DNA from: Bacilli bacterium
Lineage (GTDB): Bacteria; Bacillota_I; Bacilli_A; RF39; UBA660
NCBI GenBank assembly: GCA_017428495.1
Contig: JAFRQS010000011.1
Location: forward strand, 140,215 to 204,214
DNA: 64,000 nucleotides
Direction of reading: 5' to 3'
In this document: positions 6,104-40,468 of the stretch, in pieces
Layout of the letters: every line of letters starts with the position of its first letter
Position numbering within the stretch: the first letter of the stretch is position 1
Notes under the pieces: generated by a model
The model's database searches: none
The model's input: only the letters and a program-made list of their open reading frames with translations
What the model was told of the DNA's origin: nothing
Position numbers and translations under genes: made by a program

Positions 6104-6874
6104 TTAAAATCCTAAAAAATGTAATATAGTCATTATATCTACCCTTGTTAACAAACATATAAGTGCTGCTAAAGATAGATAAGGTCCAAACGGCAATTCA
6201 TGATTATTATTACTCTTTATTTTATCTAAAATAAGTGTCACGGGAAGTGCTATGAAAGCTGCTAAAACTATTGTAAATAAAGATATTTGCCATCCTAAAA
6301 CCATACCAAATATTAACATTAACTTAATGTCTCCGCCCCCCATTGATTCTCTTTTGAATGCCTTATCACCTAATAATTTAATAAATAACAATGCTATAAA
6401 CGGAATAATCATATTCATAAATGTTGGTAATAATATATCTATTCCACCTACTATAATTTTTAATATTAATATTAATAATCCGCAAAATATTAACAATTCA
6501 TCTGGAATTATCATGTATAAAAAATCTGAAATCATTATTATAAGCAACATAGATGCAAAAACAAGTGCAATAAACATTTCTACAGAGATCCCAAATATTT
6601 TATATATAAGTGCAAAAACTATACCTGTAAAAAGTTCAAATATAGGATAAAATATAGCTATCTTTGCTTTACAATTTTTACATTTACCACCTTGAAACAA
6701 GTATGAAAATACAGGTATTAATTCAAAAGGCCCTAATTTATGGTTACATTTAGGGCAATGAGAAGAAGGATTGATTAATGACATATTATTAGGTAGTCTA
6801 TAACCAACCACATTATAAAATGATCCAAAAATCAATCCAAATATAAAGAATACTATTAAATAATATAATTCCAT
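6104..6874 (-). CDS. pilD: type IV prepilin leader peptidase (A24 family)
   Basis: 256 aa polytopic membrane protein; N-terminal tetracysteine CPKCNHKL...CKNCKAKI and catalytic GGGDIKLM motif. Confidence 0.85.
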   Translation of the reverse strand: MELYYLIVFFIFGLIFGSFYNVVGYRLPNNMSLINPSSHCPKCNHKLGPFELIPVFSYLFQGGKCKNCKAKIAIFYPIFELFTGIVFALIYKIFGISVEMFIALVFASMLLIIMISDFLYMIIPDELLIFCGLLILILKIIVGGIDILLPTFMNMIIPFIALLFIKLLGDKAFKRESMGGGDIKLMLIFGMVLGWQISLFTIVLAAFIALPVTLILDKIKSNNNHELPFGPYLSLAALICLLTRVDIMTILHFLGF

Positions 6875-6882
6875 AAACCCAC

Positions 6883-9498
6883 CTACATTGCTGAAATATT
6901 TTGATACATATCAAACATTGGTACAACTATTGAAAGTAATATTACTCCGACAATTGCCGCTAAAATAATAATCATTACTGGTTCAATAAATGCTTTAATT
7001 TGATTTACAGCATTTTTATGCTGTTCACCATAATAATTAGCAACCTTATCCATCATAGTACCTAATTGACCTGTTTTTTCACCAGTAAGAATCATTTCAT
7101 ATGCAATATTTGGGAAAGCCCAATGATTTTTAAATGAATTAGATATTGCTTCACCTTTAGCCAAATTAGTTATTGTATCAAATATTAACATTTTATATAT
7201 TTCATTATTAGTTATTTTACTTAATACTTCCATACTATCGGTAATATATACATTATGATTTAATAAAGACGCAAATGTCTTAGTAAACATTGTTACCTCA
7301 TTGTAAATTATTATTTTACCAATTATAGGAAGATTCATAACAAAAGTTTGGACTATTGATTTAAATACTTTTATATTCTTAAATAATATTATAAATACTA
7401 TTACAAACACTAAAAATCCAAGTAATACCTTCAACCAATTACTCTGAAGGAAAGCACTAATATTTATAATTTTTTGTGTTATACCAGGCACCCCAGTTTC
7501 CATATTTGAATATATACTTACAAATTGTGGAATAACCTTTACCATAATAAATATTAATATCCCTAATGCAAATAATAATACTGCAGCTGGATATGATATA
7601 GCACTTATCATTTGCTTCCTAGTTTTATCAGTATCTCTATAATATGAAGCCATATCATCCAATGTTTCCGGCAAATCACCAGTAAGTTCTGATGTCTTAA
7701 CCATATTAATAAGCAATCTAGGGAAAATATTTCCTTGTTTTGCTAAAGCTTCACTAAAATTTTCTCCCATTGTAAGTTCATATATTATTGATTTATATAC
7801 ATTTTTATGACCACTTTTTTTACTCTGTTTTGACAAAATTTTAACTGATTCCACCAATGTCATACCTGATTTTAAAAATGTAGATAATTGAGTTAAAAAG
7901 AAATCCAACTCAGTTGCTTTAAACTTTGGTGAAAATAATGTTAAAGTCTTTGCAAAATTCTTTTGTGGAGTAATTTCATATACTTCATATCCCTCAGCCA
8001 TCAAGAATGAGTGAACATCTAATTTCGAGAAAGCTGCAAAATATCCAGTTTCTACTTTACCAGTTTCAGAATTTTTAGCAACATATTTATACATTATTTT
8101 TTCATCACTACGTATAGCATCAGCGCCATCAAAGTCAATTAATAATGTTTGTCTTTGCAATTCTCTTCTATTTTTTCTATCTTTAACTATTGATAAATTA
8201 TTATACCAATTAGAAATCTTTTCATTTAAAGTTTTTCTTTCACTTCTAGCTTTTTGTTTGCTCTCTTCTTGAGCTTTCTTAATTAATAAAGCCTTCTCTT
8301 TTCTTTCTCTTCTTGCTTGCTCTTTCTCTTTTTTTATTTTCTTGTTTTTTTCTCTTTTTTCATTTAATAAAAGAATTGCCTTATCTTCTTTTTCTTTCTT
8401 AGCCTTTGCTTGTTGCTCAAATTTTTCTTGTAATTTCTTCTTTCTTTCTTCTTCTTTCTTTTGCTTCAACAAAGCCTTCTCTTTTTCTCTATTTTCTTTT
8501 CTCTGAGCTTTTAATAATTTTTTATCTTGTAAAACACCACCATTAGTAGTAACAGTAGTAGACAAAATATCTTCTTCAGATTTCTTTCTTAATTTAGCCT
8601 CTTCTTCCGCTTGTACCTTTAATCTTTTTTCTTCGGCAATCGCTCTCTTTTTTGCTTCCTTTTCACTAATTATTTTGTTTCTTTTTGCTTCTTTTTCTGC
8701 TTTAATTCTATTTTTTTCTTCCTCTCGAGCTTTTATCTTTGCTTCTTTTTCTGCTTTAATTCTATTTTTTTCTTCCTCTCGAGCTTTTATCTTTGCTTCT
8801 TTTTCAGCAATTATTCTATTCTTTTCTTCTTCTTGAGCTCTTACCTTTGCTTCTTTTTCAGCAATTACTCTATTCTTTTCTTCTTCTTGAGCTCTTACCT
8901 TTGCTTCTTTTTCAGCAATTATTCTATTTTTTTCTTCTTCTTGAGCTCTTACCTTTGCTTCTTTTTCAGCAATTACTCTATTTTTTTCTTCTTCTTGGGC
9001 TCTTACCTTTGCTTCTTTTTCAGCAATTATTCTATTTTTTTCTTCTTCTTGAACTTTTATCTTTGCTTCTTTTTCAGCTTTATGCATTTCTTCTTGTTGC
9101 CTTTTTTTCTCGGCCTGCTCTTTTAACATTTCATCTTTTTTATCCTGAATTTTTTTCAAGAACTTAGATAAAAAAGATTCTTTTTTTACTCTAGTTTCTT
9201 TTTTACTATTAAATTCTTTTAAAGAAATTGCTGGTATGTTAGATATATCTTTAGATGAAGACTTATCATCTTCTTTATTTTTCAACGCTAATTTTTTTTG
9301 TTTTTCTTCTTTTTTATCTGCTTCAATCAATTTTTTTTCAATTAAATTTTCTATTTTTTTTCTTTGCTTTTCTATCTCTATTTTTTGTTTTCTAATCTTT
9401 AATTCTTCTTTAGTTAGATTTTTACGCACAAAAGAGGCATTTTGCTGCCTTTTATCATCATTATTATCAGAATGTGATAAAACATTATTGTTTTTCAC
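6883..9498 (-). CDS. pilC: type IV pilus / type II secretion platform protein (GspF/PilC family) with ~470-aa N-terminal K/E-rich repeat extension
   Basis: C-terminal ~400 aa is a canonical two-repeat GspF domain (KIMYKYVAKNSETGKVETGYF..., TGDLPETL, 3 TM). N-terminal 470 aa is charged, low-complexity and helical, with nine 16-aa tandem repeats AEKEAKVRAQEEEKNR(I/V)I. No in-frame stop separates the two parts. Confidence 0.82.
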   Translation of the reverse strand: MKNNNVLSHSDNNDDKRQQNASFVRKNLTKEELKIRKQKIEIEKQRKKIENLIEKKLIEADKKEEKQKKLALKNKEDDKSSSKDISNIPAISLKEFNSKKETRVKKESFLSKFLKKIQDKKDEMLKEQAEKKRQQEEMHKAEKEAKIKVQEEEKNRIIAEKEAKVRAQEEEKNRVIAEKEAKVRAQEEEKNRIIAEKEAKVRAQEEEKNRVIAEKEAKVRAQEEEKNRIIAEKEAKIKAREEEKNRIKAEKEAKIKAREEEKNRIKAEKEAKRNKIISEKEAKKRAIAEEKRLKVQAEEEAKLRKKSEEDILSTTVTTNGGVLQDKKLLKAQRKENREKEKALLKQKKEEERKKKLQEKFEQQAKAKKEKEDKAILLLNEKREKNKKIKKEKEQARRERKEKALLIKKAQEESKQKARSERKTLNEKISNWYNNLSIVKDRKNRRELQRQTLLIDFDGADAIRSDEKIMYKYVAKNSETGKVETGYFAAFSKLDVHSFLMAEGYEVYEITPQKNFAKTLTLFSPKFKATELDFFLTQLSTFLKSGMTLVESVKILSKQSKKSGHKNVYKSIIYELTMGENFSEALAKQGNIFPRLLINMVKTSELTGDLPETLDDMASYYRDTDKTRKQMISAISYPAAVLLFALGILIFIMVKVIPQFVSIYSNMETGVPGITQKIINISAFLQSNWLKVLLGFLVFVIVFIILFKNIKVFKSIVQTFVMNLPIIGKIIIYNEVTMFTKTFASLLNHNVYITDSMEVLSKITNNEIYKMLIFDTITNLAKGEAISNSFKNHWAFPNIAYEMILTGEKTGQLGTMMDKVANYYGEQHKNAVNQIKAFIEPVMIIILAAIVGVILLSIVVPMFDMYQNISAM
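8660..9100. repeat. ~9 tandem 48-bp coding repeats inside pilC N-terminal extension
   Basis: Near-identical 48-53 bp units visible directly (e.g. 8692-8744 = 8746-8798); each encodes a 16-aa AEKEAK(V/I)RAQEEEKNRxI unit. Confidence 0.85.
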
Positions 9499-22231: not shown

Positions 22232-23395
22232 CTATTTTTTATACATTATATTCATATCTACAAACCCATTTATACCATCTACTATTCCATTACTACATTG
22301 TTGCCATATTACATACTCACCTTTATAATCAGACTTACCATCTATATAATGTGCAAGCCAAACAGGATAAGAACTTCTCCATATTTTTTCTAAATAAAAC
22401 TTACTACCATATAACATTGCTTTATAACCATTTTCTTCAATTGTATCCATAAAAACATTAGCTATTTCATTAATATCATGAAAACTAATCTTATATTCAT
22501 TCCAATACTTCCAATTTTCCCAATCAAAAGTAACACCAAGTTCCAATTCTTCACCATTTAATTTATCAATTACCCATAAAGCCTGTTTTTTTGCATCATC
22601 TATATTATCAGTAATAGAATATAAATAAACGCCTACTTTTAATCCTGCTTCTTTAGCTTTCTTAATATTATCTAAATATTTTCCATCTAATTTCGGTTCA
22701 TCATCATTAGTTTGTACACCAATTCTAATAATAACAAAAGCAACACCTGAATCCTTTACTTTAACAAAATCTATGTTACCCTGCCATTCAGATACATCAA
22801 TACCAATTTCATTATTATCATCTTTATACAATTCGAACATCTCAGATATAGGAGTAGTTAAATTATTATGATATGTACTACTATTAATTTTATCTACAAC
22901 ATTCAAAGTAACATTTACACTAGTAGTATTATTACTACTATCCGATATATTATAAATCAAATTATATGTACCTATTTTATTAATATCATATTTTCCATCT
23001 ATTACACATTTTAAATCTCCAGTATAATTATCACCATATGTAATTAAATTACACAAATCTTTATCATAACCTTTTAAAACAGTCCTATTTGTACCACTAA
23101 ATACAAGTGGATATTCTGTATCAACCACATTTATAATAAATTTATACAAAAAATTCTTTTTATCACTTTTAAATATAATTTCATATTCACTACTTTCAAC
23201 TAAATCTGTATCAATTTTATAATTATCACTTATTATTTCAATATCATCTATATTACTTAATAAATCATATAAATATACATCACTATATACTTCAACAGTA
23301 TTATTAATATTAAAAGAAATACTATCTATTTCATTAACCTTCTCTTTACAACCAGATAGCAAAAAAATACTAAGTAAAAATACTATTATCTTCAT
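22232..23395 (-). CDS. GH25-family muramidase (lysozyme) lipoprotein
   Basis: Lipobox LLSGC; C-terminal GIDVSEWQGNIDF...VIIRIG...GVYLY... TIM-barrel GH25 signature; N-terminal Ig-like region. Confidence 0.8.
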   Translation of the reverse strand: MKIIVFLLSIFLLSGCKEKVNEIDSISFNINNTVEVYSDVYLYDLLSNIDDIEIISDNYKIDTDLVESSEYEIIFKSDKKNFLYKFIINVVDTEYPLVFSGTNRTVLKGYDKDLCNLITYGDNYTGDLKCVIDGKYDINKIGTYNLIYNISDSSNNTTSVNVTLNVVDKINSSTYHNNLTTPISEMFELYKDDNNEIGIDVSEWQGNIDFVKVKDSGVAFVIIRIGVQTNDDEPKLDGKYLDNIKKAKEAGLKVGVYLYSITDNIDDAKKQALWVIDKLNGEELELGVTFDWENWKYWNEYKISFHDINEIANVFMDTIEENGYKAMLYGSKFYLEKIWRSSYPVWLAHYIDGKSDYKGEYVIWQQCSNGIVDGINGFVDMNIMYKK

Positions 23396-23466
23396 AATAT
23401 CACCATTTAAATTATAATTTATAAATAAAACAATAGCAATATATAATTACTATTGTTTATTATCTA

Positions 23467-24780
23467 TTATTCTGCAAACACATATGGATCTTCAGTTGTT
23501 CCAGATCCTTTCATTTGAACTCCAGAGATTAGATATACTGAAGGCCTTACGCCTGGAGTGCCTTTCGCATGTGTGTGAGTACTACGACTTGTGGTCGCAT
23601 ACCACACGCTAAAAGCCATAGAAGATGGAAGCGCTGGGGAAATTGTCCATCCATAATTACTCATCCAGTTACTACCACAAAAACCAGTGACATTTAATAT
23701 ATTTGTTGCACACTTACTACTCCCAGATGCATATCCAAAATCACTTGGATATATTAATCCCACTTTGCCTATCCATTCAAATGTTCTTACTACCTCATCA
23801 TCACAATATGTTCCCGATGTGCACTCCTTCCCTTGTGTCCCCCTTTCATCTGCATATGCTCTTGCTAAGGTTACTATGCTAGTCACTGTTACTTCACTTG
23901 TATACCATGTTGCATCCCCTATTAACTCTTTAGAACTTAATTTTAGTACGTAATCTTTGTTGAAATTTCCGTCTCCTATTGCATTGTTTTCACCATTATA
24001 CCAATTTGCATTTGTAGATAATGTTGAGTTTAAATAATCACTATTTAATTCTTTCATTATATCTGCGCCTTCATATGTTCCAGATGGCCCCCATTGATTT
24101 ATTCCATATCCGCTATTTGCATTGCTTGTATCCCATGAAAAGCTTCCTATCGAATCTTTTCTTACCAATTTTACTCTTCCATCAAATAATCCTACTATTC
24201 TCCATACTTCACATGTACTACTTGTTGGATTACTATTGTCCGCACAATTAAAATATGCATAATTATTTGGATTACTTCCTTGATATCTATACTCTACTGC
24301 TGTATATTTCTCATTTTGTGTTTTATCATGTTCTACTTTTATTAGTCCTTCACTATTTGTTCCATTATTATATTTACTTATCAATAACTCTGCTGCATCT
24401 GTATATCCACTTATACAATTTATATTATCTTTAGTTCCTCTACATGTTATTCCATTAAATTTACCACCACTTGCGCCTTTTAACTTTACAGTTGCTATAC
24501 CATCACTATCATATGTAATACTACAACTAGAATAATCATCATTTAACTTTGCTACATCAGTGCATGGTATACTTGTTGCATTATAATTTGAATTTATTGT
24601 TTGTTGTGCCAAATAATCTTTTTCTGCATTTGTTGCTATTAATTTTGCACTATCTCCCATAGTTTTTAATTTTGTTTCTTTTATTGTATTCATTATTTGA
24701 GGTACTGCTATTATTAATATTACTGCTAATATTACTATTACTGCTAATAATTCTACTAATGTAAATCCTTTCTTTTCCAT
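23467..24780 (-). CDS. large (437 aa) type IV pilin-like protein
   Basis: Start trimmed to MEKKGFTLVELLAVIVILAVILIIAVPQI (RBS GGAGGAG). Class III prepilin signal G|FTLVE with hydrophobic alpha1, Cys-rich ~400-aa globular part. Paralogue of 25027 and 39116 genes. Confidence 0.8.
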   Translation of the reverse strand: MEKKGFTLVELLAVIVILAVILIIAVPQIMNTIKETKLKTMGDSAKLIATNAEKDYLAQQTINSNYNATSIPCTDVAKLNDDYSSCSITYDSDGIATVKLKGASGGKFNGITCRGTKDNINCISGYTDAAELLISKYNNGTNSEGLIKVEHDKTQNEKYTAVEYRYQGSNPNNYAYFNCADNSNPTSSTCEVWRIVGLFDGRVKLVRKDSIGSFSWDTSNANSGYGINQWGPSGTYEGADIMKELNSDYLNSTLSTNANWYNGENNAIGDGNFNKDYVLKLSSKELIGDATWYTSEVTVTSIVTLARAYADERGTQGKECTSGTYCDDEVVRTFEWIGKVGLIYPSDFGYASGSSKCATNILNVTGFCGSNWMSNYGWTISPALPSSMAFSVWYATTSRSTHTHAKGTPGVRPSVYLISGVQMKGSGTTEDPYVFAE

Positions 24781-24818
24781 AATACACTCCTCCATATTCT
24801 ACAATTTTATTATATCAC

Positions 24819-24918
24819 AAAAAAATACTAAGTAAAAATATTATTATCTTCATAATATCACCAATTAAATTATAATTTATAAACAAAACAATAGCAATAA
24901 CTTAATTACTATTGTTTA
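24819..24918. repeat. ~100-bp direct repeat (copy B) of the GH25 promoter/5' end (copy A at 23361-23458)
   Basis: ~90% identical strings seen directly. Copy B retains a remnant ORF MKIIIFLLSIFL-stop of the lipoprotein signal peptide. The two copies flank the pilin gene 23467-24780. Confidence 0.75.
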
Positions 24919-24962
24919 ATTTATTACTTTATAAGTACTATAGTAAAATTTTATTATACAAA

Positions 24963-24992
24963 TAAAAAAATAGAGTTTAATACTCTATTTTG
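24963..24992. terminator. terminator downstream of pilin 25027
   Basis: AAAATAGAGT-TTAAT-ACTCTATTTT hairpin. Confidence 0.6.
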
Positions 24993-25026
24993 ACCATTCA
25001 AATTAATTGATTAGCATTACTTATAT

Positions 25027-26121
25027 TTATTTAACAGCATTACCCCCTGGATCAGGTGCAAATGGATTAGGCGCATATTGTAGTTTCTCGCCTACCCAAC
25101 CACGCGAATCAATCATATATCCTTCACCATCATATGTACACATAACAGTTCCTAATTCATCTAGAATACAGGAATATAAACCATCTGACGCTCCAATACT
25201 TTTAACTGGTGCAGGTGCACTTACTGCATATACATTTTCTATTCCTAATACTTTATTAAGAAATGAATCTTTTAATGCTAATGAACCAACATCATTTCCT
25301 GTACACTTATCTTTTCCAAATACATCTGCTAAGTGTTGTTTTTCATATTCATAATTATCATATTCAAAGCAATTAATTTCATTACTAGTGTTTCCTTGAT
25401 ACTTTATACATACACTTTTTGGTGTTAAATCATCATATCTTGATTCTCCTTTTGGCAATTTTACAAATACATTACTATTTAAACTATTATAATCTGTTAT
25501 TTGCTCATATTCATAATTTACATTGGTTACTATTCCTTCATCAATTAATACAGTATCGCCATGTAATAAATCCTCTCTTAGACTAAAACCAGCAGGTGCT
25601 ACTTGGTCCGTACAATATGGTTCTCTATCTTCTTCCTTAAAATTTAATTCAGCCATTTCCATACACTTATCATAATTAATATTATATGTTAAATTTGTAA
25701 TTTGTGGAATTCCTAATGCATATATTGATTCAGAATCAGTAAGACCTTGTCTACAATCCATATTATCGATTGTACCAATACATGTCATTCCTTTAAATTT
25801 TCCAGTTGCTGTTCCTTTTAAATTAATATATGCTTCTCCTTCTGGTGATACTTCTACACGACATCTTGAGTACTCATCTTTTGAAATCTTAACTATTTCA
25901 TCACAATCCATGACTTCAAAAGATAAATCTGTTTTACCCATATTTTTTGCTATATACTCTTTTTCTGCTCTTTTTAATATTAATTTAGCACTACCTTCCA
26001 TTGTTTTTAATCTTGATGTTTTTATTGTATTCATTATTTGTGGCATTGCTATTATTAATATTACTGCTAATATTACTATTACTGCTAATAATTCTACTAA
26101 TGTAAATCCTTTCTTTTCCAT
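25027..26121 (-). CDS. large (364 aa) type IV pilin-like protein
   Basis: Same prepilin N-terminus MEKKGFTLVELLAVIVILAVILIIAMPQI and ~45 bp of identical 5'UTR as 23467 gene; divergent Cys-rich C-terminal region. Confidence 0.8.
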   Translation of the reverse strand: MEKKGFTLVELLAVIVILAVILIIAMPQIMNTIKTSRLKTMEGSAKLILKRAEKEYIAKNMGKTDLSFEVMDCDEIVKISKDEYSRCRVEVSPEGEAYINLKGTATGKFKGMTCIGTIDNMDCRQGLTDSESIYALGIPQITNLTYNINYDKCMEMAELNFKEEDREPYCTDQVAPAGFSLREDLLHGDTVLIDEGIVTNVNYEYEQITDYNSLNSNVFVKLPKGESRYDDLTPKSVCIKYQGNTSNEINCFEYDNYEYEKQHLADVFGKDKCTGNDVGSLALKDSFLNKVLGIENVYAVSAPAPVKSIGASDGLYSCILDELGTVMCTYDGEGYMIDSRGWVGEKLQYAPNPFAPDPGGNAVK

Positions 26122-26189
26122 AATACACTCCTCCATATTCTATAATTTTATTATATCACACAAAAAAATAATTGCATTTTAAAATAATA

Positions 26190-26248: not shown

Positions 26249-26803
26249 TTATTTTTCTTCTTTTTTTGTAGTTTTCTTTGTTGTAGATTTTTTTGTTGTT
26301 GTAGTTTTCTTTGCTGCTTCTTTTTTAACAGGCTCTTTTTCTTCTTTTTTAGTTGCTGTTTTCTTTGCAGCTGGTTTCTTTTCTTCTACTTTTTCTACTT
26401 TTGTAGTTTTCTTTTCTAAAGCAACTTTAGCTGGTTTATATTCTTTACCAGTTAAAGCATCTTTTGCTATATCAACTAAATCTGTAAATGCTTTTGGATT
26501 ATCTATAGCAAGTTCTGCTAACATCTTTCTATTTATTGTTAATCCTGCTTTATTAAGTCCATTTATGAATTTAGAATAGCTAATTTCATTTTCTCTACAA
26601 GCAGCATTAATTCTTGTAATCCATAATTTTCTAAAGTCTCTCTTCTTTTGTCTTCTATCTCTATAAGCATAAACACCAGAATGTAAAAGTTGTTCTTTTG
26701 CAGTTTTATAAAGTCTATGTTTACTTCCAAAGTAACCTTTAGCTTCTTTTAAAATTTTCTTTCTTCTAGCTCTTGCTACTGTTCCACCTTTAACTCTTGC
26801 CAT
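26249..26803 (-). CDS. rplT: 50S ribosomal protein L20 with ~65-aa lysine-rich C-terminal extension
   Basis: [19 protein letters not shown]...[24 protein letters not shown] is canonical L20 (~118 aa); then [30 protein letters not shown]... tail. Confidence 0.9.
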
Positions 26804-27559: not shown

Positions 27560-27713
27560 AAAAAAGCAGATACAATGTATCCACTATTAAAACTCATAAA
27601 CATATTATATTATGGCTTTATACCTAGAACTATTCGCTCTCAGGTGGATGTGGACACATCTCTTTCCTTTTTCTTACGCATTAAATTATATTATAAATAT
27701 ATGTTATTGTCAA
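27560..27713 (-). promoter_or_regulatory. sigma-A promoter plus L20-leader-like 5'UTR of infC-rpmI-rplT
   Basis: Minus strand TTGACA (comp. 27708-27713), 17 nt, TATAAT (comp. 27685-27690). ~120-nt structured leader (GUGUCCACAUCCACCUGAGAGCG...) lies where Firmicutes carry the L20-binding autoregulatory leader. Confidence 0.55.
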
Positions 27714-28511
27714 CTATTTTTTCTCTTTTTTCTTTTCTTTATCAGGTTGTTTTATTAATCTAGTTAATTTTATCATATTTTCTTCCATTATTTCTACGGC
27801 CTCATATAAATCCGATTCATAGTAATCATCATATTCATAACCTGAATCACTATACATTTTATAAGATACTCCACCTTGAATGACATCTTGCGATATACAC
27901 AATCCTGTAGTATTATCTACCCAAAATCTTACAGGTTCAATTTCAAATGTTGCAACATCACCACAATTAAATATCTCATCACCTATTCTAGTACACAAAC
28001 TATATATTGGATATTCAATAAAATAAATATTGGAATTAGGATTTACATATACAGGAAATTCTCTAAATTCAGACTTACTTAGCGCTTTATCTGATATTGG
28101 TAATTTTATTTTTACACCTGTATCTTCTTTAATAATTTGTTTTTTAATTAAGCTTTTAGGATAATATCCATATTCCATAATAGATAAATCTCTATTTACT
28201 ATTTGACCATCTAATATTAATTTTGTATCAAGATCAGGTGTACTAATAGCTGGTCTTACTCCAATTAAATATTTATCAGCTTTTGATGAATATCTATATA
28301 TTCCATCTTCTGTTACTCTAATGATTTGGGAATATGATATTTCATTAGTATCATTTACAAAATAACTTGAACATATCATATGATCTTTATTTGCAAAACT
28401 TATAAGTCCTGTTGCAAGTGAAAATTGAGTTGGGCATGCTATTTTACCGATATAATGACTAAATAGTTTCATATCCTCTAATTCTCTTTTTTCTAATACA
28501 ATAAGTGACAT
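27714..28511 (-). CDS. hypothetical protein
   Basis: 265-aa clean ORF, acidic/aromatic C-terminus (DDYYESDLYEAVEIME) and KEKKKEKK tail; no family recognised. Confidence 0.55.
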   Translation of the reverse strand: MSLIVLEKRELEDMKLFSHYIGKIACPTQFSLATGLISFANKDHMICSSYFVNDTNEISYSQIIRVTEDGIYRYSSKADKYLIGVRPAISTPDLDTKLILDGQIVNRDLSIMEYGYYPKSLIKKQIIKEDTGVKIKLPISDKALSKSEFREFPVYVNPNSNIYFIEYPIYSLCTRIGDEIFNCGDVATFEIEPVRFWVDNTTGLCISQDVIQGGVSYKMYSDSGYEYDDYYESDLYEAVEIMEENMIKLTRLIKQPDKEKKKEKK

Positions 28512-28588
28512 AACATCCCCTCACTTTAGAGGTTATTATACTTATATTTGAAATTATGTCAAATAATAAAATAGTAATTTATATATTA

Positions 28589-28640
28589 AAAAATAGAACA
28601 TATGAGTTTAAAAACTTATTTTTTTGTTCTATTTTTTTGT
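28589..28640. terminator. terminator downstream of glyQS
   Basis: AAAAATAGAACA...TGTTCTATTTTTT long-loop hairpin with T-run. Confidence 0.6.
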
Positions 28641-28650
28641 ATTATCAGTT

Positions 28651-30012
28651 TTAAAATTTAATTCTTTCACTTATATATGATACTATATCATCTACTTTTA
28701 TTACTACTTGTTCCATGGTATCTCTATCACGTATTGTTACTATATTATTGTTTAATGTTTCATCATCTATTGTTATACAGAAAGGTGTTCCAATAGCATC
28801 ACTTCTTCTATATCTTTTTCCAATACTTGATGAATCATCATAACTTGTCATAAAATTTTTAGATAACATAGTATATATTTCTTTTGCTTTTTCACTATGT
28901 ACTTTTTTTACTAAAGGAAGCACTGTTAACTTATATGGTGCAAGATAAGGATGTAATTTTAATACTTCTCTTTCTGTACCATCTTCTAATGTTTCTTTAT
29001 TATATGCTTCAAAAAGAAATGCAAGTACACTTCTATCAAGTCCATATGTTGATTCAATAATATATGGAATATATTTTTCATTTGTTTCTGGATCTAAATA
29101 CTCTTGTCTAATACCACTATACTCTGTATGACGTGTCAAATCATAGTTAGTTCTATTATGGGTACCATTAATTTCTCCCCATCCAAATGGAAAGTTATAT
29201 TCTATATCACATGCTTCCTTAGCATAATGAGCTAATTTTTCATGATCATGGAATCTTAAATTAGATTCTTTTATACCTAAATCCATGTAGAACTTTTTAC
29301 CATATTCTTTAAAATAATTATATAAATCAGAATCAGTACCTTCTTTGCAGAATGTCTGAAACTCCATTTGTTCAAATTCAATTGTTCTAAAAGTAAAATT
29401 ACCAGGTGTAATCTCATTTCTAAATGCTTTACCTATTTGACCAATTGAAAATGGTAATTTACATCTCATACTTCTTAGTACATTTAAATAATTAACATAT
29501 TCACCTTGAGCATTTTCTGGTCTTAAATAAATAATACTTTTTGAATCATTAGTAACTCCTCTATATGTTTGAAACATAAGATTAAATTGTCTTATATCAG
29601 TAAAATCACTCTTACCACATTTTGGACATGGTACCTTATTAGTACGTATATATTCCATTAGCTCATCCTGACTCATTCCATCAGCATGACTATTTGGATC
29701 ATAATCTTCTACTAAGTTATCTGCTCTATGTCTTGTCTTACAATGCTTACAATCTATTAAAGGATCAGAAAAACTTTGTACATGGCCAGAAGCTTCCCAT
29801 ACCCTTGGATGCATCAATATATCTGCATCTACTTCATAGCTATTACTTCTTTCTTGAATAAATCTTTTTCTCCAAGCATCCTTAATATTATTTTTAAGTC
29901 TACTACCTAAAGGTCCATAATCCCATGTATTTGCAAGTCCTCCATATATTTCACTACCTTGAAATATAAATCCATATTGCTTACAAAAATTTACCATATC
30001 TTCCATTTTCAT
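28651..30012 (-). CDS. glyQS: glycyl-tRNA synthetase (dimeric alpha2 type)
   Basis: 453 aa; MKMEDMVNFCKQYGFIFQGSEIYGGLANTWDYGPLG... class II motifs and anticodon-binding C-terminus. Confidence 0.9.
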   Translation of the reverse strand: MKMEDMVNFCKQYGFIFQGSEIYGGLANTWDYGPLGSRLKNNIKDAWRKRFIQERSNSYEVDADILMHPRVWEASGHVQSFSDPLIDCKHCKTRHRADNLVEDYDPNSHADGMSQDELMEYIRTNKVPCPKCGKSDFTDIRQFNLMFQTYRGVTNDSKSIIYLRPENAQGEYVNYLNVLRSMRCKLPFSIGQIGKAFRNEITPGNFTFRTIEFEQMEFQTFCKEGTDSDLYNYFKEYGKKFYMDLGIKESNLRFHDHEKLAHYAKEACDIEYNFPFGWGEINGTHNRTNYDLTRHTEYSGIRQEYLDPETNEKYIPYIIESTYGLDRSVLAFLFEAYNKETLEDGTEREVLKLHPYLAPYKLTVLPLVKKVHSEKAKEIYTMLSKNFMTSYDDSSSIGKRYRRSDAIGTPFCITIDDETLNNNIVTIRDRDTMEQVVIKVDDIVSYISERIKF

Positions 30013-30764
30013 TTAAATTCCTCCATTCTATATTGTAATCTTTTGCACTTTGCTTTTTCTTCTTTCAAACTTTCTACTTTTTTGTCAGTATCATAAATAA
30101 ATGGCCACAATTCCTTGCCTACTACTAAATATACCTCTTTACCATCTTTTTTTATTTTATACACGCTAGAAAAACAATCTCTTGTACTTGCACAATATCT
30201 TATTTCTTCTATATCAGATAGCATTCTATTTAAAAATTGTTTATCATAATCACTTAAGTGATTATAAAAACCAAACGCAATGCACTTATTGTTACTTAAA
30301 GCAGTTGGAAGACCTTGCAGCATACGTTGAAATTCATCAATAATACCCACTGAATAATCTACTTTTTTATAACCAAATCCAATATTTTCTGCTACCCAAT
30401 AAAAATCAACGTCACTATTAGCATAAGCATCCATCCTATCAATATAAAACTTTTCTTTTATTTCTTTTATTAATTCTTTACTTAATGCATGTTTTCTAGA
30501 AATCCTTAATTCAATATCATCAATAGATTTGATTACCACTTCTTGTGGCCCTTCATATATCATTGCTATTTTATGACTTCTTAAAAAATATCTTATAATT
30601 TCTTCAATTTTAAATTGATCACTTTTGCCTTTTAAACTTTTAGTAAGAGGTTCACTTACTTTTATGGCATTTTTATAATAATTACCATGAATATTTATAT
30701 TATCCATAATAGATATTTTAGTATAATTATTTGAATTTAATACATTCGCTCCATTTATTCTCAT
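30009..30764 (-). CDS. hypothetical protein co-transcribed with glyQS
   Basis: ORF trimmed to MRINGANV (RBS GGAGGG 5 nt upstream); 4-nt overlap with glyQS start; no recognisable family. Confidence 0.55.
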   Translation of the reverse strand: MRINGANVLNSNNYTKISIMDNINIHGNYYKNAIKVSEPLTKSLKGKSDQFKIEEIIRYFLRSHKIAMIYEGPQEVVIKSIDDIELRISRKHALSKELIKEIKEKFYIDRMDAYANSDVDFYWVAENIGFGYKKVDYSVGIIDEFQRMLQGLPTALSNNKCIAFGFYNHLSDYDKQFLNRMLSDIEEIRYCASTRDCFSSVYKIKKDGKEVYLVVGKELWPFIYDTDKKVESLKEEKAKCKRLQYRMEEFK

Positions 30765-30780
30765 AAAACCCTCCATAAAA

Positions 30781-30905
30781 AACAAAAACTCCTAGATATA
30801 AGGGTCCATATGGACGGTTCCACCTTACTTATTCTAGAAGAATCACTCTTTAATATTGCTAGAAGTTGCCAACCTTCATCATCGCATTCATATAACATTT
30901 AAAGT
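30781..30905 (-). promoter_or_regulatory. T-box riboswitch leader (Gly-specific candidate)
   Basis: Minus-strand RNA GUAAGG-UGGAACC-GUCCAUAUGGAC-CCUUAU forms the textbook antiterminator (A1 AAGG:CCUU, 7-nt bulge UGGA pairing tRNA-Gly UCCA, A2 hairpin). A competing terminator CUAGAAUAAG.../CUUAUAUCUAG is followed by GAGUUUUUGUUUUUU. Confidence 0.65.
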
Positions 30906-30989
30906 ATATACCAAACTTGGATATAAGTCAATAATTTGACAAAAATGTAAAAATGTGTATAATATAGGCCATAAAAAGAAGGGGTTATT

Positions 30990-32018
30990 ATGGAAATATT
31001 TGATTTTATTGGGGAAAAAAGTAATGATATGTTATCTAAGATGAGTGAAAAAGATAAACATGAATTACTAGAATTATTAAAAATTTATAGAATTTCTTTA
31101 AGAGATAGATTAGCATTAGATCCTAATGTTACTTTTGGTCTTGAATTTGAATTTGGTACAGATAATCCAAGTAAGGTTGAAAGTGGTACAAAAACATTAA
31201 ATTATAAATGGCTAATGGAAAAAAGATTAAATGGTTCTTGGTATGATTTCAAAAAAGAAACTTCTTCTACTGATGGATATGAAATAAGTAGCCCAATTCT
31301 TATTGATAGTATTGAAACATGGAAACAAGTAAAAGAAATATGTTCTTTAATTGAAAGTAATAAATGTAGAATAGATGAAAGAGATGCTGGTCACATTCAC
31401 TTTGGTACTCAAATTATTGGAAATAATCCAGATGAATGGTTAACATTCTTTAGATTATATTGTTTATATGAAAACATTATATATAGATTTAGTTATGGAG
31501 AATTTGAAAAAGAAAGATCTTTTGTTAGCACATATGCAGCGCCTCTTGCAAAAGAATATACTCACCGATTAGATAAATTGGATGAAGGTATAATAACTCC
31601 AAGCATAAGGAAAATATTTACTACACTTGCTGTACCACATAAAAAATGTGCTATGCAGTTTTATAAAGTTAGTGAAGGTGGTACATCTTTCGAAAAGAAT
31701 AGAACATTTGAATTTAGGATGCCTAATGCTTCAACTAATCCAGTTATATGGCAGAACAATGTTAACTTCTTCGCCCACTTTGTAAGTAGCGTTAAAAGTG
31801 GTAAACTGGATATTGAATTGCTAAAAAGAAAAACAAAAGAGAAATTAGATGAATTGAGTAAATTATCAAGATATAATTTAATAAGTATAGATGAAGCATT
31901 AGAACTAGCCGATTTAATATTTGATAATAACTTAGATAAAATTAATTTTTTAAGACAATATATGAAAGAATTTGAAACTACTGATGAATTTAGAAAAAGT
32001 GAATCATTTACAAAATGA
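30990..32018 (+). CDS. putative amidoligase-family enzyme (glutamine-synthetase-like carboxylate-amine ligase fold)
   Basis: 342 aa; N-terminal GLEFEFG motif typical of the amidoligase_2/GCS2 families; -35 TTGACA / -10 TATAAT at ~30933-30963. Confidence 0.45.
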   Translation: MEIFDFIGEKSNDMLSKMSEKDKHELLELLKIYRISLRDRLALDPNVTFGLEFEFGTDNPSKVESGTKTLNYKWLMEKRLNGSWYDFKKETSSTDGYEISSPILIDSIETWKQVKEICSLIESNKCRIDERDAGHIHFGTQIIGNNPDEWLTFFRLYCLYENIIYRFSYGEFEKERSFVSTYAAPLAKEYTHRLDKLDEGIITPSIRKIFTTLAVPHKKCAMQFYKVSEGGTSFEKNRTFEFRMPNASTNPVIWQNNVNFFAHFVSSVKSGKLDIELLKRKTKEKLDELSKLSRYNLISIDEALELADLIFDNNLDKINFLRQYMKEFETTDEFRKSESFTK

Positions 32019-32097
32019 AAATATTGATATATAAATTATTATATGCTATATTAAAAATGGATACACTTAAATCAAGTGCTTCCAATAAGTTGGATAT

Positions 32098-32131
32098 GCA
32101 CCTAATCAATGATTAGGTGCTATTTTTATTT
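32098..32131. terminator. terminator of amidoligase-like gene
   Basis: GCACCTAATC-AAT-GATTAGGTGC perfect 10-bp stem then TATTTTTATTT. Confidence 0.7.
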
Positions 32132-32203
32132 ATATAGTAAGGTGATTACTATGAAAAATAATAGTAATATTATAATAAATTGAGTTCTTTCTCTTTTTGT
32201 CAT
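32126..32203 (-). CDS. candidate 25-aa hydrophobic peptide (type I toxin-like?)
   Basis: MTKRERTQFIIILLLFFIVITLLYK; weak RBS AAAGG; 10-mer GCACCTAATC of the neighbouring terminator is repeated in its 5' region (32238-32247). Confidence 0.2.
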   Translation of the reverse strand: MTKRERTQFIIILLLFFIVITLLYK

Positions 32204-32405
32204 AATACCACCGCCTTTCCATCTAAAATAGAAGGAAGCACCTAATCTATGTATCCGCATAATTTATATCAAATATATAAATACCTATCAAATTACAAAA
32301 AAGTCCTTTTTAATGAAAATACGTAACAAAAAAAAGATACAATGTTATAACTAAATTATAATTTTTGTATCTTTTTATTTCTTATAATCTTATTTTTGTA
32401 ATTAT

Positions 32406-39115: not shown

Positions 39116-40468
39116 TTATTCTGCAAAAACATATGGATTAGATAATGTCCCAGAACCTTTCATTTGTACTCCTGGTATTAGATATACAGAAGGTCTAACT
39201 GCTGTAGTATTATCTGCATTATTTTTTACAATATGTCCACTAAAAGTGTACCAAACGCCACGAGCATCTGAAGATGTAGGGGCAGATGAAAGTAACCACC
39301 CATAATTCCCCATCCAGTCTGTATCACAATAAGTATTACTAGATGATATGTTGTCTATAGTACAATTACTATTTCCTGATGCGTATCCAAAGTCACTTGG
39401 ATAAACTAATCCAACTTTACCCACCCATTCAAATGTTCTTATAACAGTATCGTTACAAAAACCACCAGATGAGCATAACTTTCCTATTGTTCCCCTTTCA
39501 GCAGCATAAGCATCCGCTAATGTTATTATACCATTATATGGTATTGCTCCTAAGTACCATATTGCATCTCCAATTAGTTCTTGCGCACTTTCTTTTAATG
39601 CATAATTCTTATTAAAATTACCACTCCCTAAATTATTATTATTTCCACTATACCAGTTAGCATTTGCTAACAGTGTTGGGTCTAAATAATCTGTATTTAG
39701 TTCTCTCATCAAATCTGCACCAGTATATGTCCCAGAGGGCCCCCATTGATTTATTCCATATCCACCATTAGCTGAACCCGCTCCAGTTTTAGGGCTTGTA
39801 TCCCATGAGAAACTTCCTATTGAATCTCTTCTTACTAATTTTACTCTTCCATCAAATAATCCCACTATTCTCCATACTTCGCATGTACTACTTGTTGGAT
39901 TATTATTATTTGTGCAATTAAAATATACATAATTATTTGGATTACTTCCTTGGTATCTATATTCCACTGCTGTAGCTTTTGGTATTGCACTTGTATCATG
40001 TTCCACCTTTATTAATCCTTCACCATTTGTTCCGTTATTATATTTACTCATTAATAATTCTACTGCATCAGAGTATCCTGGAAGTGGTGTTATTTCAGTA
40101 CAATTCATTTCATCTTTTGTACCAGTACATTTGATTTTGCCGAATTTACCACCACTTGCTCCTTTTAATTTTACTGTTGCTACTCCATTACTATCATATG
40201 TAATGCTACAACTTGAATAATCATCACTTAATTTAGCCACATCTGTACATGGTATACTTGTTGCATTATAATTAGCGTTTACTGCTTGTTGACTTAAATA
40301 GTCTTTTTCTGCATTTGTTGCTATTAGTTTTGCGCTGTCTTCCATAGTCTTTAATTTTGTTTCTTTTATTGTTTTCATTATCTGTGGTACTGCTATTATA
40401 AGTATTACTGCTAATATTAGTATTACTGCTAATAATTCTACTAATGTAAATCCTTTTCTATTCTTCAT
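39116..40468 (-). CDS. large (450 aa) type IV pilin-like protein
   Basis: MKNRKGFTLVELLAVILILAVILIIAVPQI prepilin N-terminus; >70% identical to 23467 gene over N- and C-terminal thirds (…RPSVYLIPGVQMKGSGT…PYVFAE), divergent middle. Confidence 0.8.
   Translation of the reverse strand: MKNRKGFTLVELLAVILILAVILIIAVPQIMKTIKETKLKTMEDSAKLIATNAEKDYLSQQAVNANYNATSIPCTDVAKLSDDYSSCSITYDSNGVATVKLKGASGGKFGKIKCTGTKDEMNCTEITPLPGYSDAVELLMSKYNNGTNGEGLIKVEHDTSAIPKATAVEYRYQGSNPNNYVYFNCTNNNNPTSSTCEVWRIVGLFDGRVKLVRRDSIGSFSWDTSPKTGAGSANGGYGINQWGPSGTYTGADLMRELNTDYLDPTLLANANWYSGNNNNLGSGNFNKNYALKESAQELIGDAIWYLGAIPYNGIITLADAYAAERGTIGKLCSSGGFCNDTVIRTFEWVGKVGLVYPSDFGYASGNSNCTIDNISSSNTYCDTDWMGNYGWLLSSAPTSSDARGVWYTFSGHIVKNNADNTTAVRPSVYLIPGVQMKGSGTLSNPYVFAE

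Follow-up and report, generated by a model that had tools for sequence, protein, structure and literature searches.

The site between rplT and a GH25 lipoprotein gene is a strain-variable slot for modular type IV pilin genes. The best joint explanation, to which we give a probability of about 0.7, is that the genes encode bimodular type IV pilins, probably minor subunits, that the rplT-GH25 intergenic region (termed R) was duplicated by a crossover in microhomology, and that the slot varies among strains with reshuffling of pilin modules. In the 64 kb stretch of DNA analysed, here called the window, pilin1 and pilin2 are adjacent and pilin3 is 13 kb distant. The features of the locus, together with pilin3, are as follows.

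22232..23395 (-), GH25 lipoprotein gene, 387 aa, lipobox LLSGC (Pfam Glyco_hydro_25, 2.2e-26); downstream neighbour of the slot, its start duplicated
23360..23458 (-), R-down, the functional copy of R: hairpin terminating pilin1, GH25 promoter and RBS, first 12 codons of the intact GH25 gene
23467..24780 (-), pilin1, ORF of 437 aa, bimodular type IV pilin; class III signal and pilin module at 24415-24780, predicted DUF6273-like C-type-lectin-like C module at 23467-24414
24604-24825 and 25945-26166 (-), D1 repeat, 222 nt, 90% identical, with a 96-nt exact core
24781..24817 (-), U, the pilin1 5'UTR and promoter core: extended -10 TGATATAAT, RBS GGAGGAG; the promoter parts are consensus matches only
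24815-24853 (-), dead mini-ORF inside R-up, ending in TGA
24818..24827 (-), recombination junction TATTTTTTTG, a 10-mer defined by pairwise alignments and by junction variants in other strains
24818..24918 (-), R-up, the duplicated rplT-GH25 intergenic copy: terminator hairpin, GH25 promoter and RBS, GH25 codons 1-12
24963..24992 (-), pilin2 terminator hairpin (predicted fold -8.8 kcal/mol), followed by a spacer of ~45 nt and then R-up
25027..26121 (-), pilin2, ORF of 364 aa, bimodular type IV pilin; pilin module at 25753-26121, C module (241 aa) at 25027-25752
26249..26803 (-), rplT, ribosomal protein L20 with a Lys-rich tail; upstream neighbour of the slot
39116..40468 (-), pilin3, 450 aa, full-length paralogue of pilin1 (73% aa identity)

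Pilin1, pilin2 and pilin3 are bimodular type IV pilins, a kind that is already known (Raynaud et al., 2021, PMC8179133). All three begin with M(E/KN)(K/R)KG|FTLVELLAVI, and they score above the cut-offs of both Pfam N_methyl (26-31 bits; cut-off 21.2 bits) and TIGR02532 (25-27 bits; cut-off 16.3 bits). A sequence-only reading had proposed three prepilin-signal genes of 364-450 aa, and the reading frames and profile scores agree with it; a six-frame motif scan of the whole 64 kb found no further prepilin-like starts. Each gene is monocistronic and the three are in dispersed housekeeping loci, pilin3 being flanked by hrcA and a gene for a 278-aa protein and having a 5'UTR unlike that of pilin1. 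The host is an uncultured, Erysipelotrichaceae-like rumen bacterium with 26% GC.

Pilin1 is bracketed by the two copies of R. R-up and R-down (101 vs 99 nt) are identical at 94/101 aligned positions (93%), and their longest shared exact word is 23 nt. R-up encodes MKIIIFLLSIFL, 12 codons followed by TGA, and the intact GH25 gene begins MKIIVFLLSIFLLSGC. Thus the direct repeats of ~100 bp around 23467-24780 and the dead GH25 start upstream, both proposed earlier, are present as described. The D1 repeat, which takes in the pilin 5'UTR together with ~177 nt from the start of the coding sequence, had not been noticed in that reading. The longest exact repeat across the region is 96 nt; in fifty dinucleotide shuffles it averaged 13.6 nt and reached at most 18. 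U is near-identical to positions 26122-26160 upstream of pilin2. The -35 of the pilin1 promoter (TTTACT) is provided by GH25 codons 6-7 of R-up, and a promoter-like site with a TG extension is found at 24836-24809; both are consensus matches only.

The TATTTTTTTG 10-mer recurs in GH25 codons 9-12 (23360-23369) and directly 5' of the pilin2 5'UTR (26161-26170). R is homologous to the rplT-GH25 spacer of a sister species (L008), and judged by its sequence it is the native rplT-GH25 intergenic region, the hairpin in it being the terminator of rplT. The junction itself shows, at the nucleotide level, that R was duplicated by a crossover, unequal or illegitimate, within the 10-nt microhomology. The GH25 codons 9-12 copy of TATTTTTTTG crossed over with the copy adjacent to a pilin 5'UTR, so that a second pilin unit (5'UTR, gene and R) became joined behind pilin2, with duplication of R and of the pilin 5' region as well. 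The partners might have been sister chromosomes, in which case a tandem duplication would have been followed by exchange of the gene body for another, or they might have been two different alleles, one of them perhaps on incoming DNA. The earlier proposal of a pilin inserted into the 5' end of the lipoprotein gene with duplication is therefore right in placing the pilin1 unit between duplicated GH25 5' ends, but the crossover lies in a 10-nt microhomology and the unit is not a mobile cassette. Homology-facilitated illegitimate recombination in naturally transformable bacteria and microhomology-mediated tandem duplication are reportedly treated as a concept in one study. The present locus resembles microhomology-mediated duplication in its 10-nt junction, in the duplication of intervening DNA and in the extended homology that anchors one side; it differs from such models in that a sister chromosome and a foreign allele are indistinguishable as substrate. 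Another tandem pilin pair, independent of this one and located elsewhere, is accompanied by a duplicated neighbour-gene fragment of 77 nt at 95% identity, consisting of the 3' end of an upstream kinase-like (Pfam APH) gene and its terminator, plus a 300-nt 5' repeat.

Other genomes show the site in different states of occupancy. On comparison of sequences, rplT-GH25 is a strain-variable pilin slot with no pilin in the sister species (rplT-R-GH25), one in the conspecific strain L021 (rplT-pilin2-R-GH25) and two in the window strain. Precisely the stretch bracketed by the repeats (23459-24818) is missing from L021; the sequence-only reading had suggested a search for its absence. L021 retains one repeat copy, identical to R-up. 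It is close to the window strain on the GH25/parC side (flanks 99% identical in nucleotides, ParC 99.8% aa, dS 0.04) and about 95% identical on the rplT-pilin2 side, with a pilin2 that differs by 13% aa. Since the single R of L021 is 100% of R-up type, an ancestral unoccupied site is favoured, at the sequence level, over recent deletion by recombination between the repeats. In strains L013-L015 the second position of the slot (slot 2) has pilin4 in place of pilin1; slot 2 thus holds pilin1 or the unrelated mosaic pilin4, depending on the strain. Contig L007, which would support an allele with pilin1 only, may be chimeric.

Three other accounts of the repeats have to be weighed against the crossover. 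It might be argued that mis-assembly of paralogous pilin genes created the repeat and the tandem, as the source is a metagenome scaffold, the 96-nt exact repeat between pilin 5' regions could mislead short-k assemblers, and the short contig L007 looks chimeric. However, the novel junction, in which GH25 codon 12 is fused to U, turns up again in assemblies made independently, at least five of them and from at least six other samples depending on the count, k141 MEGAHIT contigs included, and has strain-specific variants. It is found in L003, L004, L005, L013-L015 and L022, which are assemblies from other samples, and the repeats are therefore real and an artefact, the possibility flagged in the earlier reading, is hardly credible. 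Insertion of a mobile genetic element or by a site-specific integrase, the ~100-bp repeats being target-site duplications or attachment sites, is nearly as improbable. Direct repeats do flank the inserted unit, and genes for a type IV coupling protein (T4CP), an RHS repeat protein and Gp10_C are present at 47-64 kb of the window. Yet 23459-24817 contains no transposase or integrase ORF and no terminal inverted repeats, and a 100-bp duplication that spans a promoter and 12 codons far exceeds any known target-site duplication. In addition, the left end of the 'insert' also repeats the region upstream of pilin2, and the two repeats meet in the 10-nt microhomology, which argues for unequal recombination rather than a mobile element; the second tandem pair has a different duplicated flank.

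More weight, though still little, can be given to a programmed ON/OFF or cassette switch, in which RecA-dependent recombination of R-up with R-down excises pilin1 at appreciable frequency within a clone and re-insertion or exchange restores it, with phase or antigenic variation as the outcome. We consider this quite unlikely. Repeats that are 93% identical over ~100 nt, a strain that is exactly the predicted deletion product, different pilins in slot 2 and a slot-2 promoter whose -35/-10 spacer is 16, 17 or 18 nt among strains (T7/T8 and (TG)1/2 tracts) are what such a switch might produce. But the single R of L021 is of R-up type at 7/7 diagnostic positions, so that a deletion crossover would be confined to the last 23 shared nt, and the 13% aa divergence of its pilin2 marks L021 as a separate lineage and not a switch variant. 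Both repeats are present in all contigs from samples with the window haplotype, and no heterogeneity at the slot is visible within samples. Recombinase or invertase genes and promoterless silent cassettes are absent from the window, as judged by its ORFs and a motif scan, and deletion is irreversible without a donor copy. What stands of the ON/OFF or cassette-exchange idea is the variation between strains: the absence of pilin1 from L021 and the pilin4 of L013-L015 amount to presence/absence and cassette-type variation at the population level; the absence of recombinase, silent cassettes and within-sample heterogeneity goes against the remainder.

Variation of pilin genes at a fixed locus has precedents. 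In Pseudomonas aeruginosa, pilA groups I-V are allelic cassettes with accessory genes, situated between pilB and tRNA-Thr. There, as here, unrelated or mosaic pilin genes in varying number occupy one conserved locus across strains of a species, presumably exchanged by homologous recombination in the flanks; those are major pilins beside assembly genes, whereas here the pilins are modular, their neighbours are rplT and a lysozyme-family lipoprotein gene, and the duplication has left a visible scar. In Neisseria pilE/pilS antigenic variation and in shufflon/invertase pilin switching it is the exposed C-terminal part that varies. The conserved N-terminal part as homology anchor and the variable C-terminal part are shared with the present genes. 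Unlike those systems, the window lacks promoterless silent cassettes, invertible segments and any G4 or recombinase element; each copy is a complete expressed-type gene, and the variation is between strains, not within a clone.

The modular construction of the proteins is evident from alignments and models. Pilin1 and pilin3 are homologous end to end, and pilin2 shares with them residues 1-123 only, identity beyond this being 21-24% (noise). Conserved N- and C-terminal thirds around a variable middle, as once suggested, do not describe the family. The AF2 model of pilin1 (pLDDT 90.3) places the alpha1 helix at residues 8-62, and the 4-strand sheet after it extends to residue 124. The pilin module is thus predicted to be a 123-aa unit in which a long alpha1 helix precedes a four-stranded sheet, with two Cys pairs; its N-terminal helix matches solved pilins, Streptococcus sanguinis PilE1 among them, and a short linker tethers the C-terminal module to it. 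The N module is a lineage-specific pilin module, present in 370 cluster representatives at E<=1e-10. Protein lengths are ~79-769 aa among the 150 representatives listed, the shortest of which may be fragments. Stand-alone proteins of 123-130 aa exist, and the N module is also fused to DUF285, BspA-LRR, Flg_new and PT-HINT modules. In pilin4 the N module is 92% identical to that of P0004, 83% to that of pilin1 and only 55% to that of pilin2, and the C module is 56% identical to that of pilin2 and 21% to that of pilin1. The module phylogenies are incongruent, and therefore N and C modules have been reshuffled. Pairwise dN/dS in the C module of pilin2 alleles is below 1 (0.46-0.62), with no sign of positive selection in these whole-module comparisons.

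With the pilin1 model, Foldseek gave as top match the Thomasclavelia ramosa IgAse structure 9qa6 (E=1.2e-7, probability 1.0, 302 aligned columns). In IgAse, the N-terminal domain belongs to DUF6273 and is an enlarged C-type-lectin-like domain (PMC12402451, PMC12237041). Sub-threshold DUF6273 matches occur in 5/101 family members, and the window proteins give no score with Pfam DUF6273. From the relatives' matches and the absence of an HExxH motif we infer that the aligned domain is the N-terminal one. The C module of pilin1 and pilin3 is accordingly modelled, on one structural match and the relatives' weak matches, as a putative DUF6273-like domain of ~315 aa. Like the IgAse/ThomasA domain, it is roughly double a canonical C-type-lectin-like domain in size, and both come from Erysipelotrichaceae-related gut bacteria; sequence identity is just 15%, without a Pfam-level match for the window proteins. 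It should be pointed out that IgAse is a metalloprotease anchored by sortase and that IgA cleavage does not require its N-terminal domain (PMC12237041, PMC12402451). As that domain's own function is not known, the match speaks for a fold and not for a ligand. The C module of pilin2 (AF2 pLDDT 77) matched no fold in the PDB or BFVD libraries, and pilin2 has only about 14 close full-length relatives; any role for this module is a guess, since its fold is unrecognisable. The grafted C modules are probably extra binding domains, and the model, the match and the module alignments uphold the earlier view of modular pilins with large grafted domains.

Two genes for pilus assembly are found in the window, paired and 14 kb from the pilin1/pilin2 locus.

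6104..6874 (-), prepilin peptidase, PilD/ComC type (Pfam A24_N_bact 2.2e-33, Peptidase_A24 6e-15)
6883..9498 (-), PilC/GspF-like platform protein, 871 aa (T2SSF 2e-49)

The platform protein has an N-terminal 470-aa Lys/Glu-rich repeat extension, and NCBIfam GspF/PilC models match its residues 470-868 below curated cut-offs (TIGR02120 GspF, 276.7 bits vs 424 bits). Within the 64 kb there is neither a PilB-type assembly ATPase nor PilM/N/O nor a small major pilin, so that a complete machinery in this genome can only be assumed. The pilins had been placed in housekeeping loci far from any assembly operon, which fits the missing ATPase but not the nearby pilD and PilC/GspF-like genes.

Perhaps pilin1-3 are not pilus subunits, and their class III signal and hydrophobic helix serve only, after processing by PilD, to anchor them in the membrane or to direct export. 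Adhesin or enzyme domains would then be displayed on the cell surface, as in the archaeal sugar-binding bindosome or a short pseudopilus. This is unlikely, though the least unlikely of the alternatives. It gains from the many unrelated surface modules borne by one N module, which are typical of wall-less or thin-walled Bacillota, from the dispersed, monocistronic genes outside any pilus operon, and from a window without PilB ATPase or major pilin. On the other hand, the N module is predicted to be a complete pilin fold, more than a helix, it occurs alone at the size of a major pilin, and pilD is paired with a PilC-type platform gene. Moreover, S. sanguinis PilB and PilC, of the same architecture, enter filaments (PMC8179133, PMC9934059).

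These modular pilins of S. sanguinis, PilB with a vWA module and PilC with a lectin module (Raynaud et al., 2021, PMC8179133; Shahin et al., 2023, PMC9934059), are the closest counterparts. Shared features are the class III signal, a monoderm host, a size of ~40-50 kDa and a layout in which a short linker connects the small pilin module with a bulky C module that is also found in non-pilus proteins. The modules themselves differ: in S. sanguinis they are vWA and a concanavalin-type lectin, in the present proteins a DUF6273-like C-type-lectin-like module and an unrecognised fold. Nor do the present genes sit within a pil operon; they are scattered among housekeeping loci as monocistronic units. 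Unlike in S. sanguinis, too, the same carrier module serves many different partner modules, and a genome has many such paralogues. Filament incorporation is known for PilB and PilC and is only predicted for pilin1-3.

With pilin1-3 read as pilus subunits, the prepilin peptidase at 6104-6874 is likely the processing enzyme and would cut their class III signal. By analogy with PilB and PilC they would probably be minor subunits, the filament body being formed by stand-alone ~125-aa versions of the N module, with pilin1-3 incorporated, probably at the tip. The expected role, on the same analogy, would be the presentation of ligand-binding modules on the filament.

The genes considered here lie on the minus strand, with two pilin genes in the interval between rplT and the GH25 lipoprotein gene and a third at a separate site:
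26249–26803, minus strand: rplT, first in order of transcription
25027–26121, minus strand: pilin2, 364 aa, second
23467–24780, minus strand: pilin1, 437 aa, third
22232–23395, minus strand: GH25 lipoprotein gene, after pilin1 and before parC
minus strand: parC, 3′ of the GH25 gene and last in this order
39116–40468, minus strand: pilin3, 450 aa

A class III prepilin signal consists of a basic leader with Gly at −1, Phe at +1, Glu at +5 and a hydrophobic helix of about 20 residues (PF07963/TIGR02532). All three pilins start with a short basic leader and Gly, followed by FTLVELLAVI, and the signal is MEKKG↓FTLVELLAVIVILAVILIIA. The curated thresholds are passed in each case, with 26.3–31.2 bits for the Pfam N_methyl model (cut-off 21.2) and 25.3–27.5 bits for TIGR02532 (cut-off 16.3). 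A GGAGGAG ribosome-binding site is situated 8 nt 5′ of the second ATG, and therefore the start coordinates assigned to these prepilin-signal genes in the sequence-only reading are right. A six-frame motif scan of the 64 kb showed no additional prepilin starts.

It had been suggested that the proteins share conserved N- and C-terminal thirds around a variable middle. This is rejected by alignment of the proteins, by nucleotide identity in sliding windows and by the identities of the single modules. Pilin1 and pilin3 are homologous from end to end (73% amino acid identity); pilin2 has only residues 1–123 in common with them (57% and 51% identity), and beyond residue 123 it is unrelated to both (21–24%). 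The pilin fold is defined by an extended α1 helix packed against an antiparallel β-sheet. The AF2 model of pilin1, made with a 101-sequence alignment (pLDDT 90.3), displays a 55-residue α1 helix (residues 8–62) and strands at 83–90, 96–102, 111–115 and 121–124, with a pLDDT of 83–92 in the pilin module, and Foldseek gives weak matches to Shewanella and Acinetobacter pilins. Residues up to 124 are thus a pilin fold, by prediction and not by experiment.

In the same model the pilin fold is followed by a separate α/β module of ~315 residues. The sole significant PDB match found with Foldseek is 9qa6, the IgA protease of Thomasclavelia ramosa (E = 1.2e-7, 302 aligned columns). The N-terminal domain of this protease (residues 31–322) is DUF6273; it has a C-type-lectin-like core of twice the usual size, the enzyme cleaves IgA without it, and its role is reported as unknown (PMC12402451, PMC12237041; both 2025). 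The HExxH motif is absent, and therefore the match is presumably not to the catalytic domain. Pfam DUF6273 (PF19789) has a gathering threshold of 23.5 bits, and the C modules of the window pilins do not match it even at E ≤ 10. Sub-threshold matches at the C-terminal end are seen in 5 of 101 relatives (E ≤ 0.01), the best of which (P0119) scores 22.0 bits over profile positions 116–171 only; a PDB sequence search with one relative returned pilin helices only. Because the window proteins have no DUF6273 sequence match, the C module of pilin1 and pilin3 is termed DUF6273-like by fold only, i.e. on the basis of predicted structural similarity. For pilin2 the model is less confident (pLDDT 77), searches of PDB and BFVD gave no match to the C module of 241 residues, and only ~14 close relatives of pilin2 are found.

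Modular pilins combine a pilin module with a C-terminal domain that is not specific to pilus biology (Raynaud et al. 2021). According to the model, pilin1 and pilin3 belong here, as their C module appears to share its fold with a domain of the IgA protease, a sortase-anchored protein; pilin2 has an extra C module, with the domain undefined. The design is that of PilB and PilC of S. sanguinis, which are modular pilins. Such proteins are reported to be widespread, with >1,200 proteins and 264 architectures (PMC8179133).

Pilin1-type proteins are found by the thousands in metagenomes, mostly in ‘Bacilli bacterium’ MAGs, and the N module alone retrieves 370 cluster representatives at E ≤ 1e-10. 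Among the 150 listed, lengths range from ~79 to 769 aa, and the shortest may be fragments. Stand-alone forms of 123–130 aa end just past the last Cys of the module and are plausible major pilins. In other relatives the N module is fused to DUF285, BspA-type LRR (LRR_5), Listeria-Bacteroides repeat (Flg_new) or pretoxin-HINT domains. The original idea that these are modular pilins is right. A metagenome protein from outside the window, P0163, joins the pilin N module to a pretoxin-HINT domain (PF07591, 8e-19), which suggests that polymorphic-toxin-type cargo is possibly borne on a pilin. Another metagenome relative (P0037, 674 aa) aligns over the full length of pilin1 with 42% identity and has a precomputed Gp10_C (PF21939) annotation.

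Paralogues are scattered singly or as pairs amid housekeeping genes. On a further scaffold of this sample the arrangements are murT/gatD–pilin–ftsW and kinase-like (Pfam APH) gene–pilin–pilin–LysR, and in another organism a paralogue is located 3′ of uppS. The remark that the pilins occupy housekeeping loci therefore holds. The accompanying statement, that they are far from any assembly operon, holds only in part: a prepilin peptidase gene (pilD, 6104–6874) and a PilC/GspF-like gene (6883–9498, minus strand) form a two-gene unit amid housekeeping genes 14 kb from the pilin pair. No PilB ATPase gene was found in the 64-kb window. The pilD gene directly follows the PilC/GspF-like gene, and the pair is positioned between trmK/rpoD/dnaG and serS. 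The PilC/GspF-like protein (871 aa) has a 470-aa N-terminal extension before the conserved core, with ~8 Lys/Glu-rich tandem repeats (EKEAKVRAQEEEKNRxIA). A type IV pilin in the full sense is cleaved by prepilin peptidase, N-methylated and polymerized by PilB/PilC into a filament. The window pilins would be processed by PilD and may enter filaments as minor, probably tip-located, subunits, with the C modules perhaps acting in ligand binding.

At the far end of the window, the region 47000–64000 looks like a mobile or phage-like island:
51212–53311: type IV coupling protein
56423–62653: RHS-repeat protein, 2076 aa, with a ricin-type lectin domain
62635–63888: protein with a Gp10_C baseplate domain
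within 47000–64000: holin-like ORF

Pilin1 is flanked by direct repeats of ~100 bp (R), at 24818–24918 and 23360–23458, with 94 of 101 aligned positions identical. The longest exact match is 23 nt in R and 96 nt region-wide, compared with ≤18 nt in shuffled sequence; the repeats are real and well above background. The copy at the GH25 gene (R-down) is functional, and the upstream copy (R-up) encodes MKIIIFLLSIFL followed by TGA, a dead remnant as had been proposed. A second direct repeat (D1), overlooked in the sequence-only reading, consists of the pilin 5′UTR and first ~177 coding nt; the pilin1 copy (24604–24825) is 90% identical to that of pilin2 (25945–26166), with an exact core of 96 nt. 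The junction is found again in other samples that were assembled independently (L003, L004, L005, L013–L015 and L022), which excludes an assembly artefact; a JGI metagenome scan with the R-up mini-ORF returned only an already known contig.

The origin of R is seen in a sister species (MAG RUG12915, ParC 94% identical), where a hairpin and a promoter come directly after rplT and lead to the start of GH25. This spacer is homologous to R and pilin genes are absent, and R is therefore the native rplT–GH25 spacer. Ribosomal protein L20, the rplT product, is 184 aa long in the window because of a Lys/Thr-rich repetitive C-terminal tail of ~65 aa; the sister-species protein (198 aa) has a tail of another length and sequence.

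R-up stops after GH25 codon 12 (...AGTATTTTTTTG) and continues straight into the pilin 5′UTR (TGATATAATAAAATT.TAGAATATGGAGGAGTGTATTATG). The sequence TATTTTTTTG is present in GH25 codons 9–12 (23360–23369), directly 5′ of the UTR of pilin2 (26161–26170) and at the junction itself (24818–24827). In a microhomology-mediated tandem duplication or unequal crossover, the new junction lies inside a short sequence common to both parental sites, and both flanks are duplicated directly. The pilin1 junction has these properties: the duplicated sequences on its two sides are R and D1, in direct orientation, and they meet in the microhomology of 10 nt. Such a structure is the mark left by a crossover, unequal or illegitimate, in which all between two sites is duplicated. 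The bracketed segment has no transposase, integrase or terminal inverted repeats. Thus the proposal of an insertion with duplication had the outcome right, and the event is best read as a microhomology crossover.

As a result of the fusion, pilin1 has a promoter-like site at the junction, with the −35 TTTACT from GH25 codons 6–7 and the extended −10 from the pilin promoter core (U), and the duplicated GH25 promoter farther upstream; both are consensus matches only. A terminator scan found none because the hairpins are AT-rich, and these were folded directly instead. It should be pointed out that the spacer between the −35 and extended −10 of the promoter at the second pilin position (window 24809–24836) is 16, 17 or 18 nt among strains, as a result of T7/T8 and (TG)1/2 tracts situated where the crossover joined the sequences. 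When the tract is compared near the R-up junctions of L013, L014, L015 and L022, the near-identical L013/L014 and L015 differ. The T/TG tract may be slippage-prone, with an effect on pilin expression.

An ON/OFF or cassette-exchange mechanism had also been envisaged, and several known systems can be compared. In pilE/pilS, promoterless, 5′-truncated silent copies feed one expression locus. Here all three window pilins have a start codon, RBS and signal peptide, two of the three have a promoter-bearing 5′UTR in common, and a motif scan and BLAST found no partial pilin copies in the window. Invertases and shufflons require inverted repeats around the variable segment and a site-specific recombinase gene; the window repeats are direct, its inverted repeats are terminator hairpins only, and the neighbours of the pilin pair are rplT, GH25 and parC. 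Diversity-generating retroelements act on CLec/DUF6273 variable proteins through a ~90% template repeat of the gene 3′ end and a nearby reverse transcriptase. The window has no template repeat for pilin1; the 3′ region of this gene matches nothing else there but pilin3, at ~76% across the whole gene. Presence/absence and cassette-type variation between strains is real; a programmed switch is not supported.

The search for strains without the pilin1 segment was positive. L021 (MAG GCA_016282445.1) has exactly the predicted structure, rplT–pilin2–R–GH25, and is close to the window sequence (99% nt identity on the GH25/parC side, ~95% on the rplT–pilin2 side, ParC 99.8% at the protein level). Its single R is of the R-up type at all seven diagnostic sites and reads on into GH25. 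The shared part of R that lies 3′ of the last diagnostic site amounts to no more than its final 23 nt, and a site that was unoccupied in the ancestor is therefore more probable than a deletion.

L013–L015 have kept R-up, and the second position is occupied by a 363-aa pilin4, followed by an R-down of their own and a GH25 gene with a diverged 5′ end. In the N module, pilin4 shows 92% identity to a relative, P0004, and 83% to pilin1; in the C module it is akin to pilin2 alone (56%). Recombination of modules has therefore taken place. A long BLAST HSP had given the impression of a pilin1 N module joined to a pilin2-like C module exactly at the domain boundary. Codon-level comparison ruled this out, with N modules only 83% identical and a dS of 0.44; relative to pilin1 the whole gene is replaced from the start codon, and only the 5′UTR is common. 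Alleles of pilin2 differ by up to 18% of amino acids in the C module in strains with ParC 0.2% apart, with no sign of positive selection in whole-module pairwise estimates (C-module dN/dS 0.46–0.62). The pilin4 strains also have extra 123-aa and 637-aa genes without Pfam domains (L013 56–1969; L014 1256–3549), between glyS and a 265-aa ORF, which are absent from the window.

A second tandem pair is present on another scaffold of the same sample (L018, 6860–8654). P0011 (427 aa, DUF6273-like) and P0158 (266 aa), which carries another C module, unlike P0011, share a 5′ repeat of 300 nt, and the 3′ end of the kinase-like (Pfam APH) gene upstream of them is duplicated together with its terminator, over 77 nt with 95% identity. 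Duplication of the same kind occurred here independently, and this kind of event has thus taken place at least two times. The pilin3 site is also a variable junction, as judged from two other arrangements. In the sister species (L008 6200–6335) a 278-aa gene (window 40504–41340) directly adjoins the infC promoter; the two are separated in the window by a 12.9-kb block (27604–40503), which begins exactly with pilin3 and contains hrcA-grpE-dnaK-dnaJ, glyS and the 265-aa ORF. In L025 the 278-aa gene is followed by a pilin3 allele that is diverged (P0002), and the genes beyond it are different.

The partners in the crossover might have been sister chromosomes, whereby the pilin2 unit was duplicated in tandem and the gene body then replaced, or two different alleles. 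The contig L007 (1870 bp; stretch concerned 1–470) suggests an rplT–U–pilin1–R allele, but its 5′ end is unrelated: an internal DUF285/BspA-like ORF fragment on the opposite strand is joined to the last 58 nt of rplT, followed by the rplT terminator, the pilin 5′UTR and pilin1. L007 may be a real haplotype, rearranged or pilin1-only, or an assembly chimera formed via the 96-nt repeat.

Protein architecture, junction, origin of R and between-strain polymorphism are established. A broader reading is that the 123-aa pilin module and its portable promoter/5′UTR constitute a lineage-wide, recombination-competent carrier cassette, with the conserved 5′ part as homology anchor. We consider this unlikely, at a probability of roughly 0.15. 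If true, rumen Bacilli would move, duplicate and swap surface modules (lectin-like, BspA repeats, pretoxin-HINT) between loci and strains, a pilus counterpart to the diversification seen with polymorphic toxins or shufflons, and the rplT–GH25 interval, the second tandem pair and the variable pilin3 junction would be snapshots of the process. DNA uptake is also a capability of type IV filaments, so a carrier-cassette system could promote its own diversification.

Simple filaments are believed to gain many functions through modular pilins; to our knowledge few have been studied, every one in cultured pathogens. Both the type of protein and the type of event (unequal recombination) have been described before. 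What is new lies in the individual modules, in how widely an uncultured rumen lineage reuses a single carrier module, and in a polymorphic site that is well resolved. In this lineage the conserved pilin carrier is joined to many different surface modules, among them a predicted lectin-like domain that also heads a gut IgA protease. Should the module bind a ligand when carried on a pilus, the same ligand may explain the role of DUF6273 in IgA proteases. The junction represents a clean, datable case of a new putative adhesin gene gained via a microhomology crossover that copied a neighbour's promoter. Natural strains differ in the number and identity of pilins at a given chromosomal site, and the rplT–GH25 locus offers candidate adhesins for colonization studies.
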